35,457 nt of DNA from Patescibacteria group bacterium (GTDB taxonomy: Bacteria; Patescibacteriota; Minisyncoccia; UBA6257; UBA11618). Positions 6,362 through 17,133 of this stretch are shown here, in pieces. Position 1 is the first letter of the stretch, and the number at the start of each line of letters is the position of its first letter. The translations under genes and the position numbers were made by a program. Under the pieces are notes generated by a model that did not search any database, was not told the origin of the DNA, and saw only the letters and a list, made by a program, of their open reading frames with translations. The stretch lies in assembly GCA_003539915.1 (NCBI GenBank), contig DPNX01000002.1:1-35457 (forward strand), in the 5' to 3' direction.

Positions 6362-6832
6362 ATGCATTTTCAAGTTCCTCAATTTATTGATGTAGAAGAT
6401 AAAATAGTTGGTCCTTTAACTATTAAGCAGTTTTTGTATGTTGCGGCTGGATTCTTAACTATTTTCTTTAGCTTCTTTATTTTTCACTTTTATTTTTGGT
6501 TAATATCTACTGTCTTTATTGTAGTAATAAGTGGTGCTTTCGCTTTTATTAAGTATAATGGCAGATCGTTCTTAGTCCTTATAACATCAGTAATCAATTA
6601 TTACTGGCGTCCTCGTATCTACATCTGGAAAAAAAGGGGTGGTAAACAGGTTAAAAAGAGAGGATTATCAAATCTAAAGTTAAAATTAGATACCTCAAGG
6701 AAGCCTATTAAAGGAGAGAAGTCTTTTATGCTTCCTTTCTTGCAAAGAATAAAGAAGATGAAGGATGAGTATGAGGTTTTTAGAAAATCTACGGGTGAAA
6801 GAGAGGTGGCTCGTAGAGTTGATTATAGATAA
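6362..6832 (+). CDS. PrgI-family (VirB3-like) small membrane protein
   Basis: The N-terminus FQVPQFIDVEDKIVGPLTIKQFLY is followed by two TM helices. This is the characteristic opening of PrgI-family proteins of Gram-positive-type T4SS, and the gene lies directly upstream of VirB4. Confidence 0.7.
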   Translation: MHFQVPQFIDVEDKIVGPLTIKQFLYVAAGFLTIFFSFFIFHFYFWLISTVFIVVISGAFAFIKYNGRSFLVLITSVINYYWRPRIYIWKKRGGKQVKKRGLSNLKLKLDTSRKPIKGEKSFMLPFLQRIKKMKDEYEVFRKSTGEREVARRVDYR

Positions 6833-6846: not shown

Positions 6847-7518
6847 ATGCCAAAACAAAAATCCCTAGCAACACAAGAAATTATTGATATTGATCGCATT
6901 GAAGATGATGTGATTGTTTTGAAAGGTGGTAGTTTTAGAAAAATATTATTAGTTTCAGGAATTAACTTTGATCTTAAATCTGAAGAAGAGAAGAACTTGA
7001 TCATCTTCAGTTACCAGGAGTTTTTAAACTCTCTAAGCTTTTCTATTCAAGAGATAATTCATTCTCGAAAGATTAATATTGAGGGTTATTTGAGTCATTT
7101 AAAAAATCTCCATCAAAAAGAACCTACTAGCTTGTTAAAAAATTTAATTACTGACTATAAAGATTTTGTTAAAGAGTTTGTAGAAAGAAATCCTATTATG
7201 TCTAAGACTTTTTTTATTGTAGTGCCTTATGACCCTATTAATATTCCTAAGATAGGTAAAAGAGTAACTAGAGGTTTGTTTGGATTATTTAAAAAGAAGA
7301 AAGGAGTGGTTGAAGAAAAAACTGAAGATGGTCAGTTTTTAGAAAATAAGCGGCAGCTGGATTTGAGAGTGGATCAAGTAACAGCAGGACTAAATAGGGT
7401 TGGCTTGAGAGCTGTTCCTTTATCAGAAGATGAGGCTATTGAATTATTTTATAATTTTTATAATCCAGCATTAGTAGAAAAGAAAGGTGTTATTAAAAGA
7501 GATAAAAATGAAGAATGA
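6847..7518 (+). CDS. VirB4/TraE-type ATPase, N-terminal domain encoded as a separate ORF
   Basis: TQEIIDIDRIEDDVIVLKGGSFRKILLVSGINFDLKSEEEKNLIIFSYQEFLNSL matches the conserved opening of Gram-positive-type VirB4 proteins (recalled pattern, not a search). The ORF ends at TGA 7516-7518, inside the next ORF. Confidence 0.7.
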   Translation: MPKQKSLATQEIIDIDRIEDDVIVLKGGSFRKILLVSGINFDLKSEEEKNLIIFSYQEFLNSLSFSIQEIIHSRKINIEGYLSHLKNLHQKEPTSLLKNLITDYKDFVKEFVERNPIMSKTFFIVVPYDPINIPKIGKRVTRGLFGLFKKKKGVVEEKTEDGQFLENKRQLDLRVDQVTAGLNRVGLRAVPLSEDEAIELFYNFYNPALVEKKGVIKRDKNEE

Positions 7519-9205
7519 AATTAAAAACATAATAGCGCCAGCTGCTCTAGAGGTTAGCCCTAGCTATTTAAAGTTGGGTGATAAGTATACTAAAACTATA
7601 TTTATCACATCCTATCCTCGTTACTTAGCCACCGGCTGGTTCTCATCAATCATTAATGCTCCTGAATTAATGGATGTATCTATTTTTGTTCATCCGGTAG
7701 ATACCGCAATTGCTTTGAAAAGTTTAAGGCGGAAAACTGCTCAAATAGAATCGCAGATAATAGAAAAAAGTGAGAAGGGGGTTGTTCGAAGTCCTAAATT
7801 AGAAACCGCTCTTCAAGACATTGAGTCTTTAAGAGATTCCTTGCAACAAGCGACTGAGCATCTATTTAATGTTTCTGTTTATATAACTATTTATGCTGAT
7901 AGTGTTAATGAATTAAAAAGATTAGAGGGTAAGATCAATCACTTATTAGAAAGTCGTCTAGTTTATAGCAAGCCAGCCACCTTTCAACAGATAGAGGCCT
8001 TTAACACCACCCTGCCAATAGGAAAAGACTCTTTAATGATCACGTCTCCTTTCAACTCTTCACCAGCCTCTTCGTTTTTTCCTTTTGTTTCTGCCACATT
8101 AACTTCTGATAGCGGTGTACTACAGGGTATTAATCTTAGTAACAATACTTTGGTTATTTTCGACCGCTTTTCTCTAGAAAATGCTAACCAGGTCATCTTT
8201 GCCACCTCTGGTTCTGGTAAATCATATGCTGCTAAATTAGAAGCTTTGAGATTATTAATGACTGGAACCGATGTCCTGATTATCGATCCAGAAAATGAGT
8301 ATAAGAATCTAGCAAAAGCAGTTGGAGGGAGTTTCTTTAATATCTCTCTAGCATCAAAAGATCATATTAACCCTTTTGATTTACCAATTATTCCTAAGGA
8401 TAGTGATCCAACAGATACTCTAAAATCACATATAGTTAACTTAGCTGGTTTATTAAAAATAATGCTAGGGGAGATGACTCCTGAGGAAGAGGCTCTCTTG
8501 GATAGGGCTATATCAGAAACCTATGCCTCTAGAGACATAGCTCCAGGAAAAGACTTTTCTAAAGCTCAACCACCATTATTATCCGACTTAGAAACTGTTC
8601 TTAATAGCTTGACTGGTGGTCAGTCATTAGCCCAACGCCTATATAGATATACCCAAGGTAGTTATGCTGGCTTTATCAACCAACCAACCAACATTAATAT
8701 ACGGAATAGATTGGTTGTCTTCTCTATTAGAGATCTTGAGGAGGAGTTGAGACCTATAGCGATGTATATGATCGTTAACTTCATCTGGAGCCTAATTAAA
8801 AGTGAGTTGAAGCAACGAGTGATGATAGTTGATGAGGCTTGGTGGATGATGAAATACCCTGCTGGCGCCTCTTTTATGTTTGGATTGGTTAAGAGAGCTA
8901 GAAAATACTATTTAGGTGTCACTACTATAACTCAAGACGTTGAAGACTTCTTACAATCTCCTTATGGAAGACCGATAATTACAAACTCTGCTTTACAGAT
9001 ATTATTAAAACAGCAACCGGCAATGATTGATTTGCTTGCTAAGACGTTTAACCTGACAGAAAGTGAGAAGAATTTCTTACTAGACGCACCTGTGGGTGAG
9101 GGGCTGTTTTTTGCAGGCTTAAATCATGTCATTATTAAGATAGTAGCTTCTTATCTTGAGGATCAGATCATAACAACAAATCCAAAAGACTTATTAAATG
9201 AGTAA
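7508..9205 (+). CDS. virB4: VirB4/TraE-type conjugal-transfer-like ATPase, central and C-terminal ATPase part
   Basis: Walker A is ATSGSGKSY (8207-8224) and Walker B is VMIVDEAWWMM (8819-8836), with IAPAALEVSPSYLKLGDKYTKTIFITSYPRY upstream. I prefer the ATG at 7508 over the tracked GTG at 7487. Confidence 0.85.
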   Translation: MKNEIKNIIAPAALEVSPSYLKLGDKYTKTIFITSYPRYLATGWFSSIINAPELMDVSIFVHPVDTAIALKSLRRKTAQIESQIIEKSEKGVVRSPKLETALQDIESLRDSLQQATEHLFNVSVYITIYADSVNELKRLEGKINHLLESRLVYSKPATFQQIEAFNTTLPIGKDSLMITSPFNSSPASSFFPFVSATLTSDSGVLQGINLSNNTLVIFDRFSLENANQVIFATSGSGKSYAAKLEALRLLMTGTDVLIIDPENEYKNLAKAVGGSFFNISLASKDHINPFDLPIIPKDSDPTDTLKSHIVNLAGLLKIMLGEMTPEEEALLDRAISETYASRDIAPGKDFSKAQPPLLSDLETVLNSLTGGQSLAQRLYRYTQGSYAGFINQPTNINIRNRLVVFSIRDLEEELRPIAMYMIVNFIWSLIKSELKQRVMIVDEAWWMMKYPAGASFMFGLVKRARKYYLGVTTITQDVEDFLQSPYGRPIITNSALQILLKQQPAMIDLLAKTFNLTESEKNFLLDAPVGEGLFFAGLNHVIIKIVASYLEDQIITTNPKDLLNE

Positions 9206-11619: not shown

Positions 11620-12764
11620 TGAAAAAAATAATTATTACAATTTCAATCATCTTAATCGTTATTATTAGTGGTTTTATAATCTATTCATTCTTAAGCCCAA
11701 GTGACACCTTGGACTTTGAAATAATAGATTTAGTTACTGATAATTCTGAAAGCACTGATTCAGAACTAGTTTTTGAAAATAAAATAAATATTGTATCACC
11801 AGAAGAAATTTTAGGTTATTCAATTAATCCAGTCACTAAGCATGTTTACGTTGTTAATACGCTAGGTGAAATTAAAAAGATTAATAACTCGAACTCTGAA
11901 AAAGTTTCTAGTCAAAAAATTAAGGGGATTAATAAGGTTCAGTCCTCAAAAGATGGTAGGAAAATAATGATTGGATTTAACTATCCCAACCAACCAGTTT
12001 TTTCTATTTATAATATTACTGATAGCAACTGGACACCTCTTCCTAAAAATACTATCAGCGCTGATTGGCACCCAGAAAATTCTAATGAAATTATTTATTT
12101 AACTAATGATAATTTAAAGATATTAGATCTTAAAAAAAATAGGTCTAGGTCTGTTTTAAACATTAAATTAACAGGCTCTAAATTAGACTGGGTGTCGTTA
12201 AGTGAGGTGATTGTAATGGAGAGACCTACTACTAAATACAGCTCTGATGCGTGGTTGATTAATTTGAGCACTAAAAAAATTAAAAAAATAGCCTCGGGTA
12301 AAGGTTTAATGATTAATCAGAAAGACGGTTGGAGACTAAGCTTTGTTTATAATAGTAAGGGTAATGAGGTGTTTAATTTAATTAATTCAGAAACTAATAA
12401 GGTTGTTGGTTATTTTAACTTCAGAACCCTACCTTCTAAATGTGTTATTGATCAAAATAATTTTTATTGTGCTATCCCGAATCAAATACCATTGAACACA
12501 TCTCTACCTAATGATTATTTGAGTAGAAAATTTATATCTGATGATATTATCCAATCTATAATGATTAGTAGTGATTCGCAATCAATAGAGTCTAAAATAT
12601 TATACAAAGAAGGGGATGATTTGGTTGATGCTACTGACCTTAAAATAGTTAATGATCAGTTATATTTTATTAATCGATCTGATAATAAACTCTATAGCCT
12701 AAAGTTAGATAAGGTGATAGAGGGGGTTGTTAAGGAGGGGGTTACTGAAGAAGCTTCACAATAA
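11619..12764 (+). CDS. Hypothetical membrane-anchored protein, possibly beta-propeller (TolB-like blades); last gene of the operon
   Basis: N-terminal anchor is IIITISIILIVIISGFIIYSF. Blade-like segments recur, for example ISADWHPENSNEIIYLTNDNLKILDL. The fold call is a guess. Confidence 0.5.
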   Translation: MKKIIITISIILIVIISGFIIYSFLSPSDTLDFEIIDLVTDNSESTDSELVFENKINIVSPEEILGYSINPVTKHVYVVNTLGEIKKINNSNSEKVSSQKIKGINKVQSSKDGRKIMIGFNYPNQPVFSIYNITDSNWTPLPKNTISADWHPENSNEIIYLTNDNLKILDLKKNRSRSVLNIKLTGSKLDWVSLSEVIVMERPTTKYSSDAWLINLSTKKIKKIASGKGLMINQKDGWRLSFVYNSKGNEVFNLINSETNKVVGYFNFRTLPSKCVIDQNNFYCAIPNQIPLNTSLPNDYLSRKFISDDIIQSIMISSDSQSIESKILYKEGDDLVDATDLKIVNDQLYFINRSDNKLYSLKLDKVIEGVVKEGVTEEASQ

Positions 12765-13173
12765 CACAACGACCAACTCCTTCTCCAGCGCTCTCAGTCT
12801 CCACGTCTGGACGAGTAGCTAGTTCTAAATGAATGATCCTTCTTTCGTAAGAATTCATAGCTGGTAATTTAACATCTTCCTTAGTCATAACCACTTTTCT
12901 TGCGGCAGCTTTAGCAATATCTATAATAATATTCTCTCGTTCTTTGCGATAATTATTAACATCAACAAAAACTGAGTCGTGATCATTCTTATTAGCTAAA
13001 ACTTTAGATAGGTGATTGAGATCACTAATTACTCTAGGAATCCAATTCTTAAACCAATCTCCTTCGTTAATAAAGATAATTATTTTTCTTCCTTCATTAT
13101 CTGAATTAATAGAAAAATCTTTAAACCCCACTAATTCCAGGATCCGTTGTATTGTTGCTTTGGTCTTCTCCAT
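12742..13173 (-). CDS. jag: Jag/KhpB-type RNA-binding protein (KH plus R3H domains)
   Basis: The R3H-like motif NSYERRIIHLEL is present, and the gene sits downstream of yidC in the classical rpmH-rnpA-yidC-jag order. Confidence 0.8.
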   Translation of the reverse strand: MEKTKATIQRILELVGFKDFSINSDNEGRKIIIFINEGDWFKNWIPRVISDLNHLSKVLANKNDHDSVFVDVNNYRKERENIIIDIAKAAARKVVMTKEDVKLPAMNSYERRIIHLELATRPDVETESAGEGVGRCVIVKLLQ

Positions 13174-13849
13174 AAATCTTTTTATTAATATATAACTGCT
13201 GAGCTAAAGAAAATAAGGTTGTTGTTAACCAATAAACTCCAACAGCAGAAGGCATGTTAAACAATATAACAACTGCTAGTATTGGACCAATCCAAATCAT
13301 CTTTCTACTAATTTTAACCGCTTGTGGTTCTGGCTCTCCTTTCTTAATTTTAGGAAGAGTTAGGCGACCATGCACATACTGAAAGACGGCAGCTAAAACA
13401 ACAATAAGAATACTCTTATTTGATAGATCAATCAAGCCTAAGAAAGTACTGTTAACTACCTCTGGTTGAGAAACAAAGGGGTAGAGATTTTTTAACGTCT
13501 CAGATGTAACACCTAAATAAAAGACTCTATAAACCGCAATCAACACAGGTAGTTGTACAAGAATTAATAAGAAGCCTGAAAAAGGATTAACTTTATGTTG
13601 TTTATATAACTCCAACATTCTTCGCGCTTGTTCTTCGCGATCATCTTTGTGATCATGTTGTATTTTTTGTATCTCTGGTTGAAGTTTTTGTAAGAGGGTT
13701 TGATTTTTAAAACTCTTATAAAAAAGGGGGGCGAGAATAGTTCTAATAATTATAGTTAATAAAATTATAGATACACCAAAGTCTCCAATATTGTTATATA
13801 AAAAAATAAGGGTGTTAAATATAGGTTGTGTGAGAAAGGTGTTAAACAT
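13121..13849 (-). CDS. yidC: Membrane protein insertase YidC (short Gram-positive/Oxa1 type)
   Basis: The sequence contains ILLTIIIRTILAPLFYKSFKNQ...KLQPEIQKIQ...YKQHKVNPFSGFLLILVQLPVLIA. Synteny with rnpA supports the call. Confidence 0.9.
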   Translation of the reverse strand: MFNTFLTQPIFNTLIFLYNNIGDFGVSIILLTIIIRTILAPLFYKSFKNQTLLQKLQPEIQKIQHDHKDDREEQARRMLELYKQHKVNPFSGFLLILVQLPVLIAVYRVFYLGVTSETLKNLYPFVSQPEVVNSTFLGLIDLSNKSILIVVLAAVFQYVHGRLTLPKIKKGEPEPQAVKISRKMIWIGPILAVVILFNMPSAVGVYWLTTTLFSLAQQLYINKKIYGEDQSNNTTDPGISGV

Positions 13850-14151
13850 TATTTAAATAATTTATTAATTTCTTCGATTAGTTGTTCTTTAGAATTATTC
13901 TTACTAATCACAACTAAATAATCAAATGGTTTTAGTTGAGGTAATAATAATCTTACCTGATTAAATACCAATCTCTTCAATTCATTTCTTTTCACTGCTG
14001 ATTTAACCACTTTTTTACTAACCATCACTCCTAACCGAGGGACATCTTTATCGTTAGTATATTTTTTTAGAGTTAAAGATTGAGAGCGTCTAACTTCTGA
14101 TTTTTTACTCTTTAAATATTGAATAGGAAGCCTGTTTTTCTTGGCTAACAT
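13849..14151 (-). CDS. rnpA: Ribonuclease P protein component
   Basis: A 100-aa basic protein starting immediately after the rpmH stop, with the RNR-like KRNELKRL motif. Position is canonical. Confidence 0.85.
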   Translation of the reverse strand: MLAKKNRLPIQYLKSKKSEVRRSQSLTLKKYTNDKDVPRLGVMVSKKVVKSAVKRNELKRLVFNQVRLLLPQLKPFDYLVVISKNNSKEQLIEEINKLFK

Positions 14152-14286
14152 TTAAACAGTAATGTTTTTTCTACCCTTTTGACGACGGCTTTTTAACACT
14201 CGTCGACCACCCGGGGAGGCGCTTCTTTTTAAGAATCCGTGGACTCTTTTTCTCTTTCTTTTTTTAGGTTGATATGTTGTTGACAT
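14152..14286 (-). CDS. rpmH: 50S ribosomal protein L34 (44 aa; below the ORF-track size cutoff)
   Basis: Hand translation of the minus strand gives [44 protein letters not shown]. This is the L34 signature, and the gene abuts rnpA. Confidence 0.95.
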
Positions 14287-14313
14287 AATAATTATTTATA
14301 GCAGAAAATATAG

Positions 14314-14333
14314 TTTTCCACAACTCATCCACA
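14314..14333 (+). promoter_or_regulatory. Two DnaA-box-like 9-mers in the rpmH-dnaA spacer
   Basis: TTTTCCACA (14314-14322) and TCATCCACA (14325-14333) each have one mismatch to TTATCCACA. Confidence 0.6.
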
Positions 14334-14366
14334 TGTTATTAATTTAGGTCTTATTTCATTGAAATT

Positions 14367-14394
14367 TTGACGAGATGCGAAGAGTGATTAAAAT
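14367..14394 (+). promoter_or_regulatory. dnaA promoter: TTGACG-16 nt-TAAAAT, with the -10 ending 6 nt before the ATG
   Basis: The -35 is at 14367-14372 and the -10 at 14389-14394, with the ATG at 14401. There is no Shine-Dalgarno in between. Confidence 0.55.
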
Positions 14395-14400
14395 GATGAT

Positions 14401-15762
14401 ATGGATCTAAATCAGTTTTGGGAAAAAGCCTTAGGAGATATTGAGCTTCAAGTTTCAAAACCTAACTTTGTTACTTGGTTTAAGAATAGTAGGGTAATTG
14501 ATAAACAAGACGGTTTAGTGGTTATTGGTCTACCAAATAACTTTGCTAAAGAATGGGTGGAAAAGAAATACGACAAAGTCATCTTAGGTTCTTTAAGATC
14601 GTTAGATGAGAAGGTTAAAAAGGTGGAGTTTATCATCCACTCCCAAAACAAGCCTCTTGTGCCAAGTAATCTTTCTGAAAAAGCTGTTGCTGATAACGAA
14701 ACTCAATTAAGTTTTACTGAATTTAAGATTGACCCCGAAACAAACCTTAATCCCCAGTACACTCTTCAGTCATACGCTGTTGGATCAACAAACGAATTAG
14801 CTTATGCCGCGATAACTGCCATCCTCGCTTCGATAGGTAACAAATACAACCCTCTCTTTATCTACGGGGGAGTGGGTGTTGGTAAAACTCATTTAATACA
14901 GGCGGCTGGCAATGAAATAAAAAGGAAGTCTAAGGGAAATGTTAAGGTTAGGTATGTTTCCTCAGAAAAATTCACTAATGATGTTATTTGGGCGATGAGA
15001 AACAAACGAATGGATACTATGAAGTCTAAGTATCGAAATGTAGATGTTTTAATTATTGATGATATTCAATTCATTGGCGGTAAAGAAAAGACTGAGGAAG
15101 AGTTCTTTCACACCTTCAATGCTTTGTTCGAACAAAATAAACAGATCATCCTATCCTCTGATAGGTCTCCTAAGTTCATTCCCGTCCTTGAGGAGCGCTT
15201 GAGCTCACGTTTTGAGGGTGGAATGACGGTTGATATATCATCACCTGATTTCGAGCTTAAGGTGGCTGTTTTACGCAATAAGTTAGAAGAAAAGGGTATT
15301 GAGTTAAGTAATGAGGTTATAAACGCTATCGCTAGTAAAACTCAAAAGAATTTAAGAGAGTTAGAAGGTATATTAAATAAGGTTTTATTTTATAAAGAGG
15401 TTAAAAAAGAAGAGGTTAGTGCTAAAACCCTTGATCAAATAATCGATAATATAGTTCAAAAACCAGCTAAAACAACTAGTCCTGATCAAATAATGAAGAT
15501 AGTCTCTAATTTTTTTGAGATATCTATTAACGATATAATCAGCCGCTCTAGAAAAAAGGAGATTGTTGAGCCTAGACAGGTGTCTATCTACCTCTTGAGA
15601 GATATATTAGGCTTATCTTACCCTTATATTGCTGATAAATTAGGAAAAAGAGATCATACTACTGCTATTTATGCTTATAATAAAATAAAGAAGGAGATCT
15701 TAAAAAATCAGATGTTAAACCAAAAAATAATCATGATTAGAGATATTATAGATAAGGGATAA
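14401..15762 (+). CDS. dnaA: Chromosomal replication initiator DnaA
   Basis: AAA+ Walker A is GGVGVGKTHL and Walker B is LIIDDIQF. The C-terminal DNA-binding helix is DHTTAIYAY. Confidence 0.97.
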   Translation: MDLNQFWEKALGDIELQVSKPNFVTWFKNSRVIDKQDGLVVIGLPNNFAKEWVEKKYDKVILGSLRSLDEKVKKVEFIIHSQNKPLVPSNLSEKAVADNETQLSFTEFKIDPETNLNPQYTLQSYAVGSTNELAYAAITAILASIGNKYNPLFIYGGVGVGKTHLIQAAGNEIKRKSKGNVKVRYVSSEKFTNDVIWAMRNKRMDTMKSKYRNVDVLIIDDIQFIGGKEKTEEEFFHTFNALFEQNKQIILSSDRSPKFIPVLEERLSSRFEGGMTVDISSPDFELKVAVLRNKLEEKGIELSNEVINAIASKTQKNLRELEGILNKVLFYKEVKKEEVSAKTLDQIIDNIVQKPAKTTSPDQIMKIVSNFFEISINDIISRSRKKEIVEPRQVSIYLLRDILGLSYPYIADKLGKRDHTTAIYAYNKIKKEILKNQMLNQKIIMIRDIIDKG

Positions 15763-16026
15763 CTTATGGATAAGCTGAGGATTACTGGTGAGTGAGTTCT
15801 GGATAAAAAGTTAGTAAAAACAACTCTACTCAACAAGGTTAAAAGATATCCTATACTTATTACTCTTCTATCCGAGTTTAATCCACAGGAAGTAAACAGG
15901 TTGTTGCGCAGAAAAAAATATTTTTAATTCGATTATAAAAGGGTTATAATATGTTATTCACAAAAAAGGTCCTACACTACTAACTACTACTACTATTAAT
16001 AATTAATATATAAATATATTAGTAAT
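15763..16026 (+). other. Candidate oriC (dnaA-dnaN spacer): DnaA boxes, CTA/TAG trinucleotide run, AT-rich unwinding element
   Basis: One-mismatch boxes are TATGGATAA (15765-15773, reverse orientation), TCTGGATAA (15798-15806, reverse), TAATCCACA (15879-15887) and TTATTCACA (15954-15962). Seven CTA triplets lie at 15972-15995. The stretch 15996-16026 contains only one G/C base. Confidence 0.7.
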
Positions 16027-17133
16027 ATGAAGGTTGTTATCTTAAAAAGTAATTTAAAAGGTGGATTGTCGTCAGTCGAGAGAGCTATAGGAGAGAGTTC
16101 TAATTTACCAGTTCTTAGAAACGTCTTATTAAAGACTAATGGTAATAAGATTAATATTTCAACAACTAATTTAGAACTAGCTATCACTAAAACTGTTTCA
16201 GGAAAGATTATCGAAGAAGGAGGTTTAACGATTCCTTTCAGTACTTTAAATAATATTGTTAACAATACTACTCAAGAGAGAGTTAGTTTAGAAAAGGATG
16301 GAAATAATTTTATTTTCAAGACAGATAATTACGAAGCTAAAATACAAGGACTTAAAGAAGATGAATTTCCAGTTATTCCTAAGATTAAAAGTGAAAACTG
16401 TATAGAGTTCAATCCGGTTATATTAAGAAAAGCTGTTAATAAAGTTATTAGTGCTGCTCAGATGTCAGAAATAAGACCAGAGATTAGTGGGTTATTACTT
16501 GATTACCAAGTAACTCAAATAAAATTAGTAGCAACGGATAGTTTTAGGCTCGCAGAAAAGAATATTAGCGCCAATCAATTCAAGTCTGATATAAACCACA
16601 GCTTTAAGGTAATCGTTCCGCTAAAGACCGTTCAGGAGGTCTTAAGGGTATTTAGCGATGATGAACCAATCAAACTTTTTATAGACGACAATCAAATTCT
16701 TTTTAAGAACAATAATTTACAGATCATTTCTAGATTGATTGATGGTGAGTATCCGGATTATGAACAGATTATCCCTAAAAGTATCGAAACTGAATTAAGT
16801 GTTAATAAGGAGCATTTTATAAACGCTGTTCGCTTAGTTAGTACTTTTAGTGGAAAAAATAATGATGTTAATCTAGCGCTTAAAAACAATAAGGTGATGG
16901 AAGTTTATTTAGCTAATCAGATGTTGGGAGAAAATAATTACATGATCCCCACCAAAACTGACGGAAAAGATTTTGAAAATGTTTCTTTTAACTGGCGTTA
17001 TCTAATTGATGGCTTGAAAGTTATAGATTCTGAAAATCTAATCTTTGGAGTTAATGGTAATAATCGTCCAGCGGTAATTAAGTCAGCTGATGACACTTCT
17101 CATTTTTATATCTTAATGCCAATCAAGGCTTAG
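16027..17133 (+). CDS. dnaN: DNA polymerase III beta sliding clamp
   Basis: The protein is 368 aa and contains ATDSFRLA and LIDGEYPDYEQIIP motifs. It follows dnaA. Confidence 0.95.
   Translation: MKVVILKSNLKGGLSSVERAIGESSNLPVLRNVLLKTNGNKINISTTNLELAITKTVSGKIIEEGGLTIPFSTLNNIVNNTTQERVSLEKDGNNFIFKTDNYEAKIQGLKEDEFPVIPKIKSENCIEFNPVILRKAVNKVISAAQMSEIRPEISGLLLDYQVTQIKLVATDSFRLAEKNISANQFKSDINHSFKVIVPLKTVQEVLRVFSDDEPIKLFIDDNQILFKNNNLQIISRLIDGEYPDYEQIIPKSIETELSVNKEHFINAVRLVSTFSGKNNDVNLALKNNKVMEVYLANQMLGENNYMIPTKTDGKDFENVSFNWRYLIDGLKVIDSENLIFGVNGNNRPAVIKSADDTSHFYILMPIKA

Follow-up and report, generated by a model that had tools for sequence, protein, structure and literature searches.

The window, by which we mean the whole 35,457-nt stretch of DNA analyzed here, has a GC content of 34-37% and belongs to a tiny marine bacterium of the Patescibacteria (CPR) whose type IV secretion system (T4SS) is chromosomal. 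On the forward strand, a gene for a 156-aa PrgI/VirB3-like membrane protein (6362..6832; Pfam PF12666 PrgI, E 1.7e-8, above the cut-off) is followed immediately by an ORF of 223 aa (6847..7518), which starts with the ATG at 6847 and ends with the TGA at 7516-7518. An ORF of 565 aa (7508..9205, forward strand) comes next, and a gene with a T4SS pilin domain lies downstream of it. The neighboring T4SS genes in the window are all intact. The window also contains RrnaAD (rsmA/ksgA, 694-1455), DnaA (14401-15762), and DnaN (16027-17133). In the region 12742-17133, the last 23 nt of the T4SS operon lie within a convergent jag-like (R3H) gene; the operon lies beside yidC, dnaA, and dnaN and is thus origin-proximal, as reported for many Patescibacteria.

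The 223-aa and 565-aa ORFs overlap by 11 nt according to their ORF coordinates (ATGAAGAATGA, 7508..7518, forward strand), and the frame of the second is +1 relative to the first. Across the junction, the small gene reads GAT AAA AAT GAA GAA TGA, over ATG AAG AAT GAA ATT in the frame of the large one. A run of five A residues occupies 7504..7508 of the same strand, its last A being the A of the ATG of the 565-aa ORF. The two ORFs, their overlap, and the A5 run had all been placed at these coordinates in a preliminary description of the locus, and the ORF analysis bore them out. The same description held that the two ORFs together total about 788 aa and that removing one A would fuse the frames. 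Deleting one A from the run indeed yields an open reading of the window sequence, ...RDK-MKNEIK..., but the fused length is 785 aa. The frames can, moreover, be joined by any single-base indel within approximately 7478-7515, not solely in the A5 run, and the 35-kb window contains 91 A5 runs and 72 longer A runs (163 A runs of at least five). The A5 run at 7504-7508 is unremarkable in itself, and we consider its position at the junction incidental.

No clear Shine-Dalgarno sequence was found before the ATG at 7508, where there is just AAGAG, 6 nt upstream. Other junctions within the same operon overlap by 1, 4, 4, and 8 nt; in this T4SS operon, a gene as a rule begins before the preceding one has ended. 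The GTG at 7487 was considered as an alternative start of the larger gene and rejected, because in the sister species the aligned ATG directly follows a stop codon, which fixes the start at the ATG at 7508.

The 565-aa ORF matched the NCBIfam model NF045971 (VirB4-like, CD1110 family) with 379.8 bits against a cut-off of 325, covering profile positions 186-731 of 752, and its Pfam matches were P-loop_TraG (89 bits), AAA_10, and DUF87. The Walker A and Walker B motifs that had been ascribed to this ORF were seen as ATSGSGKSY and VMIVDEAW, which identifies a VirB4-family ATPase. Three full-length VirB4 models were tiled by the two products without overlap, the small product covering 1-104 and the large one 186-731 in CD1110, 19-178 and 238-726 in TIGR00929, and 100-233 and 293-893 in VirB4_plasma. 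Judged by these profile matches, the predicted 565-aa product is the remainder of VirB4, that is, the rest of the N-terminal domain together with the P-loop ATPase. It corresponds to a VirB4/TrsE-type T4SS ATPase without the first ~185 residues of single-chain VirB4.

The best NCBIfam match of the 223-aa ORF was NF041427, the TrsD/TraD family of conjugative transfer proteins (E 8.4e-9, residues 14-126 only); its score of 35.5 bits is far below the curated cut-off of 200, so that the protein is not a member by NCBI's rule. After it ranked three full-length VirB4 models, each matched in its N-terminal part. When a 50-sequence profile of the 223-aa protein was compared with the TrsD protein of L. 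plantarum using hhalign, residues 21-207 aligned to 43-216 of 219 with a probability of 96.5% and an E value of 7.3e-10. The precomputed Pfam family of the 223-aa protein and its homologues is PF26593 'TraC-like'; it appears in precomputed annotations only, and a Pfam-A scan of the ORF itself gave no match. By sequence similarity, the protein is distantly related to the TrsD proteins of plasmids. Its length of 223 aa, within the range of about 200-230 aa, and its position directly upstream of a VirB4 ATPase gene are those of TrsD.

The AF2 model of the 223-aa protein had a pLDDT of 85.3, with the residues at the junction (215-223) disordered. A Foldseek search with this model returned TrwK/VirB4 of the R388 T4SS as all of the top 14 PDB matches (E 1e-4 to 4e-3, probability 1.00, TMq 0.39-0.49); beyond these, E values rose above 0.06. 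The predicted fold corresponded to the N-terminal region of TrwK in entries 8RTB, 8RTD, 7O41, 7O42, and 7O43, at 12-16% identity. A profile search of the 223-aa family against the PDB sequences gave no match, so that VirB4 was found there by fold comparison only. Stand-alone homologues of ~210-235 aa numbered 875 in one database, and a representative library held 1957 homologues, the best 150 of which were nearly all 200-400 aa long, with one of 797 aa. From the profiles and the predicted fold, the 223-aa product is a putative TrsD-type protein, i.e., the first part of the VirB4 N-terminal domain as a polypeptide of its own. The preliminary description was thus right in regarding this ORF as the N-terminal part of VirB4; the named family TrsD had escaped it.

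The fused 785-aa sequence was searched in six frames against 60 related genomes, after which the loci were extracted and each junction was rebuilt. Both parts lay on one contig in 56 relatives of the same order, to which the following counts refer. In 52 of these, the N-terminal part ended in a stop codon at one shared boundary (query residues ~207-223), and an ORF of its own encoded the ATPase, so that the comparison of orthologues proposed beforehand showed the split to recur at the same point. Only four relatives (G046, G051, G021, and G044) had one uninterrupted ORF of ~790-815 aa. Open frames of more than 800 aa had suggested many fused genes, a reading that was rejected when the sequences showed the two matches to share a frame but to be separated by a stop.

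The junctions of the 52 split relatives varied freely. Relative to the small gene, the ATPase gene was in frame 0 in 11 genomes, +1 in 20, and +2 in 21. The two genes overlapped in 13 genomes, were 0-20 nt apart in 21, and were separated by longer spacers of up to 572 nt in 18. Their types (ATGA, TAATG, TAA-ATG, TAAnATG) are ordinary for bacteria, and comparison of the junctions showed that the A5 run is not conserved. A maximum-likelihood tree built from the ATPase part of 53 taxa gave the fused forms at least two origins and placed them among split forms, in other families than the window species, while the sister species and all family-level relatives were split. The frame relation changed at least 20 times on this tree, even between the near-identical pair G012/G008. 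In a phylum-wide sample, 197 of ~200 genomes had a match, mostly as two separate matches with the ATPase match beginning at query residue ~223. Because the split is near-universal while frames and junctions vary, these alignments indicate that the split is the old, stable, and normal state of the lineage, whereas the junction sequence is free to drift. By the same comparison, the split predates the order and probably the phylum as well.

Several junctions had features of their own. The ATPase proteins of G012 (locus L013, contig C70) and G008 (L014, C39) are virtually identical, and their junctions differ: the former is a 20-nt overlap, and the latter is a 53-nt spacer with a G+C-rich inverted repeat, CCTCCCCCTACCCCTCCTCGGTAGAGGAGGGGAG, which resembles an inserted hairpin element. 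Spacers of 86-119 nt with an A+T-rich palindrome, ACGAATATACGAATTCGTATATTCGT, were seen in L025 (G048:C79) and L026 (G017:C41). The long spacers between the TrsD-like and ATPase genes in L024 (G006:C1) and L048 (G033:C6), of 218 and 572 nt, leave room for an inserted small gene.

The sister species, a member of the same genus with 83% nucleotide identity to the window, has both genes intact, as does the window species. At its junction, GATAAAAAATAAATG, the small gene ends with GAT AAA AAA TAA and the ATPase gene begins in the same frame with ATG AAT AAT GAA ATT. The DNA alignment places a 5-nt gap at the junction in the window relative to the sister species. This 5-nt difference removed the TAA that ends the small gene, which consequently runs three codons further, to the TGA inside the ATPase gene; the 11-nt overlap of the window species arose because this TAA was lost. 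The A5 run is a remnant at the site of the 5-nt difference. The dN/dS values against the sister species were 0.076 for the 223-aa gene and 0.027 for the ATPase gene, and as estimated from these alignments, both genes are under strong purifying selection.

The use of TGA in this lineage was also examined. A reading of TGA as a non-stop codon in the genome of the window was rejected, since seven of the 33 window ORFs end in TGA and conserved genes are without in-frame TGA; were the TGA at 7516-7518 read through, a TAA two codons on would end the small ORF. These TGA ends occur though RF2 was not found in this genome, in which one class-I release factor was detected, RF1-like with a PET motif (L068, G000:C3:5148-5936). 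An assembly gap is the likeliest reason for the absence of RF2, the genome being in 53 contigs and 94.5% complete; the sister species has an RF2 with an SPF motif. Two relatives of one genus within the same order, G022 (L051, G022:C3:1600-4650) and G052 (L052, G052:C1:64100-67150), have TrsD and VirB4 genes interrupted by in-frame TGA only. At the columns of these TGA codons, 49-54 of the 54 other relatives have Trp, and the TrsD and VirB4 genes of G022 lack TGG altogether. Each of the two genomes gave a single strong release-factor match, itself with three TGA codons. From these codon columns, TGA looks like a Trp codon in both. This agrees, at the class level, with the first report of translation table 4 in the Patescibacteriota class Minisyncoccia (gTranslate, PeerJ 2026, PMC13695967).

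Taken together, we are highly confident that the locus holds two real, separately translated genes of a chromosomal, origin-proximal T4SS, with a lineage-typical split VirB4. A genuine split was the first of three readings in the preliminary description, and it gains its support from the 52 of 56 relatives that are split, in all three frame relations.

Slippage at the A5 run had been offered as the third reading. Here, a programmed +1 frameshift or phase-variable slippage at A-AAA-A would produce a full-length VirB4, either besides or instead of the halves. Such a shift can be drawn: a tRNA-Lys on the AAA at 7504-7506 could re-pair on the AAA at 7505-7507, after which the ATG would be read in the ATPase frame, and because of the 11-nt overlap there is room for it, though in the window species only. 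Against it, the 52 split relatives have neither a conserved slippery motif nor a conserved frame relation, 11 of them are in the same frame with an in-frame stop between the genes that no frameshift could bypass, and the sister species needs no shift at all. With at least 20 changes of frame relation on the tree and a conserved ATG of its own in the downstream gene, the locus does not behave as a programmed frameshift site. Phase-variable homopolymer tracts are usually at least 7 nt long, with length variants between strains or within populations. The junction tract measures 5 nt, is too short for the known tracts of transcriptional slippage or phase variation, is one of 163 A runs of this length or longer in the window, and is identical at the consensus level in the window and four other assemblies, with no A-run length variation across the five. 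A two-gene architecture, seen in 52 of 56 relatives and with each of the three frame relations, is typical of the lineage, and the slippage reading is unsupported; we judge it very unlikely. Equally improbable, in our estimate, is a weaker form of it, in which an occasional +1 slip of tRNA-Lys on A-AAA-A within the overlap would give some single-chain VirB4, as a step towards the re-fusions seen at least twice in the order. A slip of this kind is chemically conceivable, but no observation calls for it, and it finds no support in the comparison of relatives.

The second earlier reading was an assembly indel. If the run were a homopolymer sequencing or assembly error and the true genome had A4, the locus would encode a single-chain 785-aa VirB4, as the open frame left by removing one A allows; a single-chain protein of ~790-815 aa does exist in the four fused relatives of the same order. 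The identical 43-nt junction with A5, however, was recovered from four other assemblies made from different samples with different assemblers. Contigs of ERZ909154 (ERR594345), Logan SRR6488124, GCA_001048895.1, and ERZ5402418 each encode a protein identical to the 223-aa product, including the three C-terminal residues, whose codons follow the A5 run. The four are 98.8-99.96% identical to the window, with 2-9 mismatches elsewhere and an identical junction, an agreement between consensus assemblies, which may share a systematic homopolymer bias. Illumina data are not prone to errors in a run of five A, which is also a short tract for an error of the systematic kind. An indel is likewise contradicted by the relatives, since the sister species and every family-level relative are split and the fused forms belong to other families; we consider it extremely unlikely. 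The idea of a recently inactivated VirB4 in a decaying secretion locus, which draws on the resemblance of the pair under table 11 to a frameshifted gene when measured against single-chain VirB4 models, has a negligible probability given the strong purifying selection on both parts, the age of the split, the intact neighboring T4SS genes, and the essentiality of the system in one cultivated relative tested (PMC12102498).

The two-gene TrsD and VirB4 arrangement itself is already known and published, and the window is a member of it. Quiñonero-Coronel et al. (2025, Microb Genom, PMC12102498) reported 2,272 homologues of TrsD, described as homologous to the N-terminal portion of VirB4, in Patescibacteria, of which 1,664 adjoin virB4, and listed the TrsD gene as essential in Ca. 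Southlakia epibionticum ML1. The described pair shares with the window a small gene homologous to the VirB4 N-terminus beside virB4, a chromosomal location, and no relaxase. The T4SS locus in Patescibacteria is commonly near dnaA, dnaN, ksgA, rnpA, and rpmH (PMC12102498), and the window has this setting as well, near dnaA/dnaN, rsmA (KsgA), rnpA, and rpmH, together with genes for PrgI/VirB3-like, VirB6-like, and VirB2-like pilin proteins. Nothing essential is different; the junction of the window is an 11-nt overlap that goes back to a 5-nt difference to the sister species, and the published work does not go into the structure of the junctions or the fused forms that turn up now and then.

Comparable pairs, TrsD/TraD with TrsE, occur in Gram-positive plasmids of the pGO1/pSK41 type (MPF-FATA). 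In the L. plantarum plasmid NZ_CP058677.1, genes for small membrane proteins likewise come first, then a trsD gene of ~220 aa, and immediately after it a DUF87/VirB4 ATPase gene. In contrast to the window, the identity to its TrsD is 27%, its ATPase has 671 aa versus 565, and its system is conjugative with a relaxase, whereas that of the window is chromosomal with no relaxase nearby. A Miltoncostaea (actinobacterial) plasmid shares the gene order of PrgI, N-domain gene, and DUF87 ATPase. Compared with single-chain VirB4 (TrwK of R388, and VirB4 of the CD1110 family and mycoplasma ICEs), the two window products together cover the full-length profiles but are two polypeptides instead of one, and the structural match of the small product is moderate (TM 0.49, 12-16% identity).

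With the locus understood as two separately translated genes, the 11-nt overlap would probably couple translation of the ATPase to termination of the small gene and thus keep the parts in step. Such coupling fits the overlaps of 1, 4, 4, and 8 nt elsewhere in the operon and the want of a clear Shine-Dalgarno sequence. In the R388 structures (7O41/8RTB), the covalent VirB4 N-terminal domain binds the ATPase and the VirB3-like protein at the membrane. By analogy, the small protein would probably form a non-covalent complex at the membrane with both the ATPase and the PrgI/VirB3-like protein, in which it would do the work of the covalently attached N-terminal domain of single-chain VirB4.

To the published arrangement, this analysis adds two points. 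TrsD has been described in the literature without an assigned function, and the tiling of the profiles together with the predicted VirB4 N-terminal fold leads us to propose a role for it, that of a detachable N-terminal domain of the motor. The other point is that a stable split goes with a fluid junction: across 53 taxa, the frame changed at least 20 times and the genes re-fused at least twice. For annotation, a frameshifted-looking VirB4 in Patescibacteria or in pGO1-type Gram-positive systems is a normal TrsD and VirB4 pair, and to label such pairs as pseudogenes, assembly errors, or recoding sites would be wrong.
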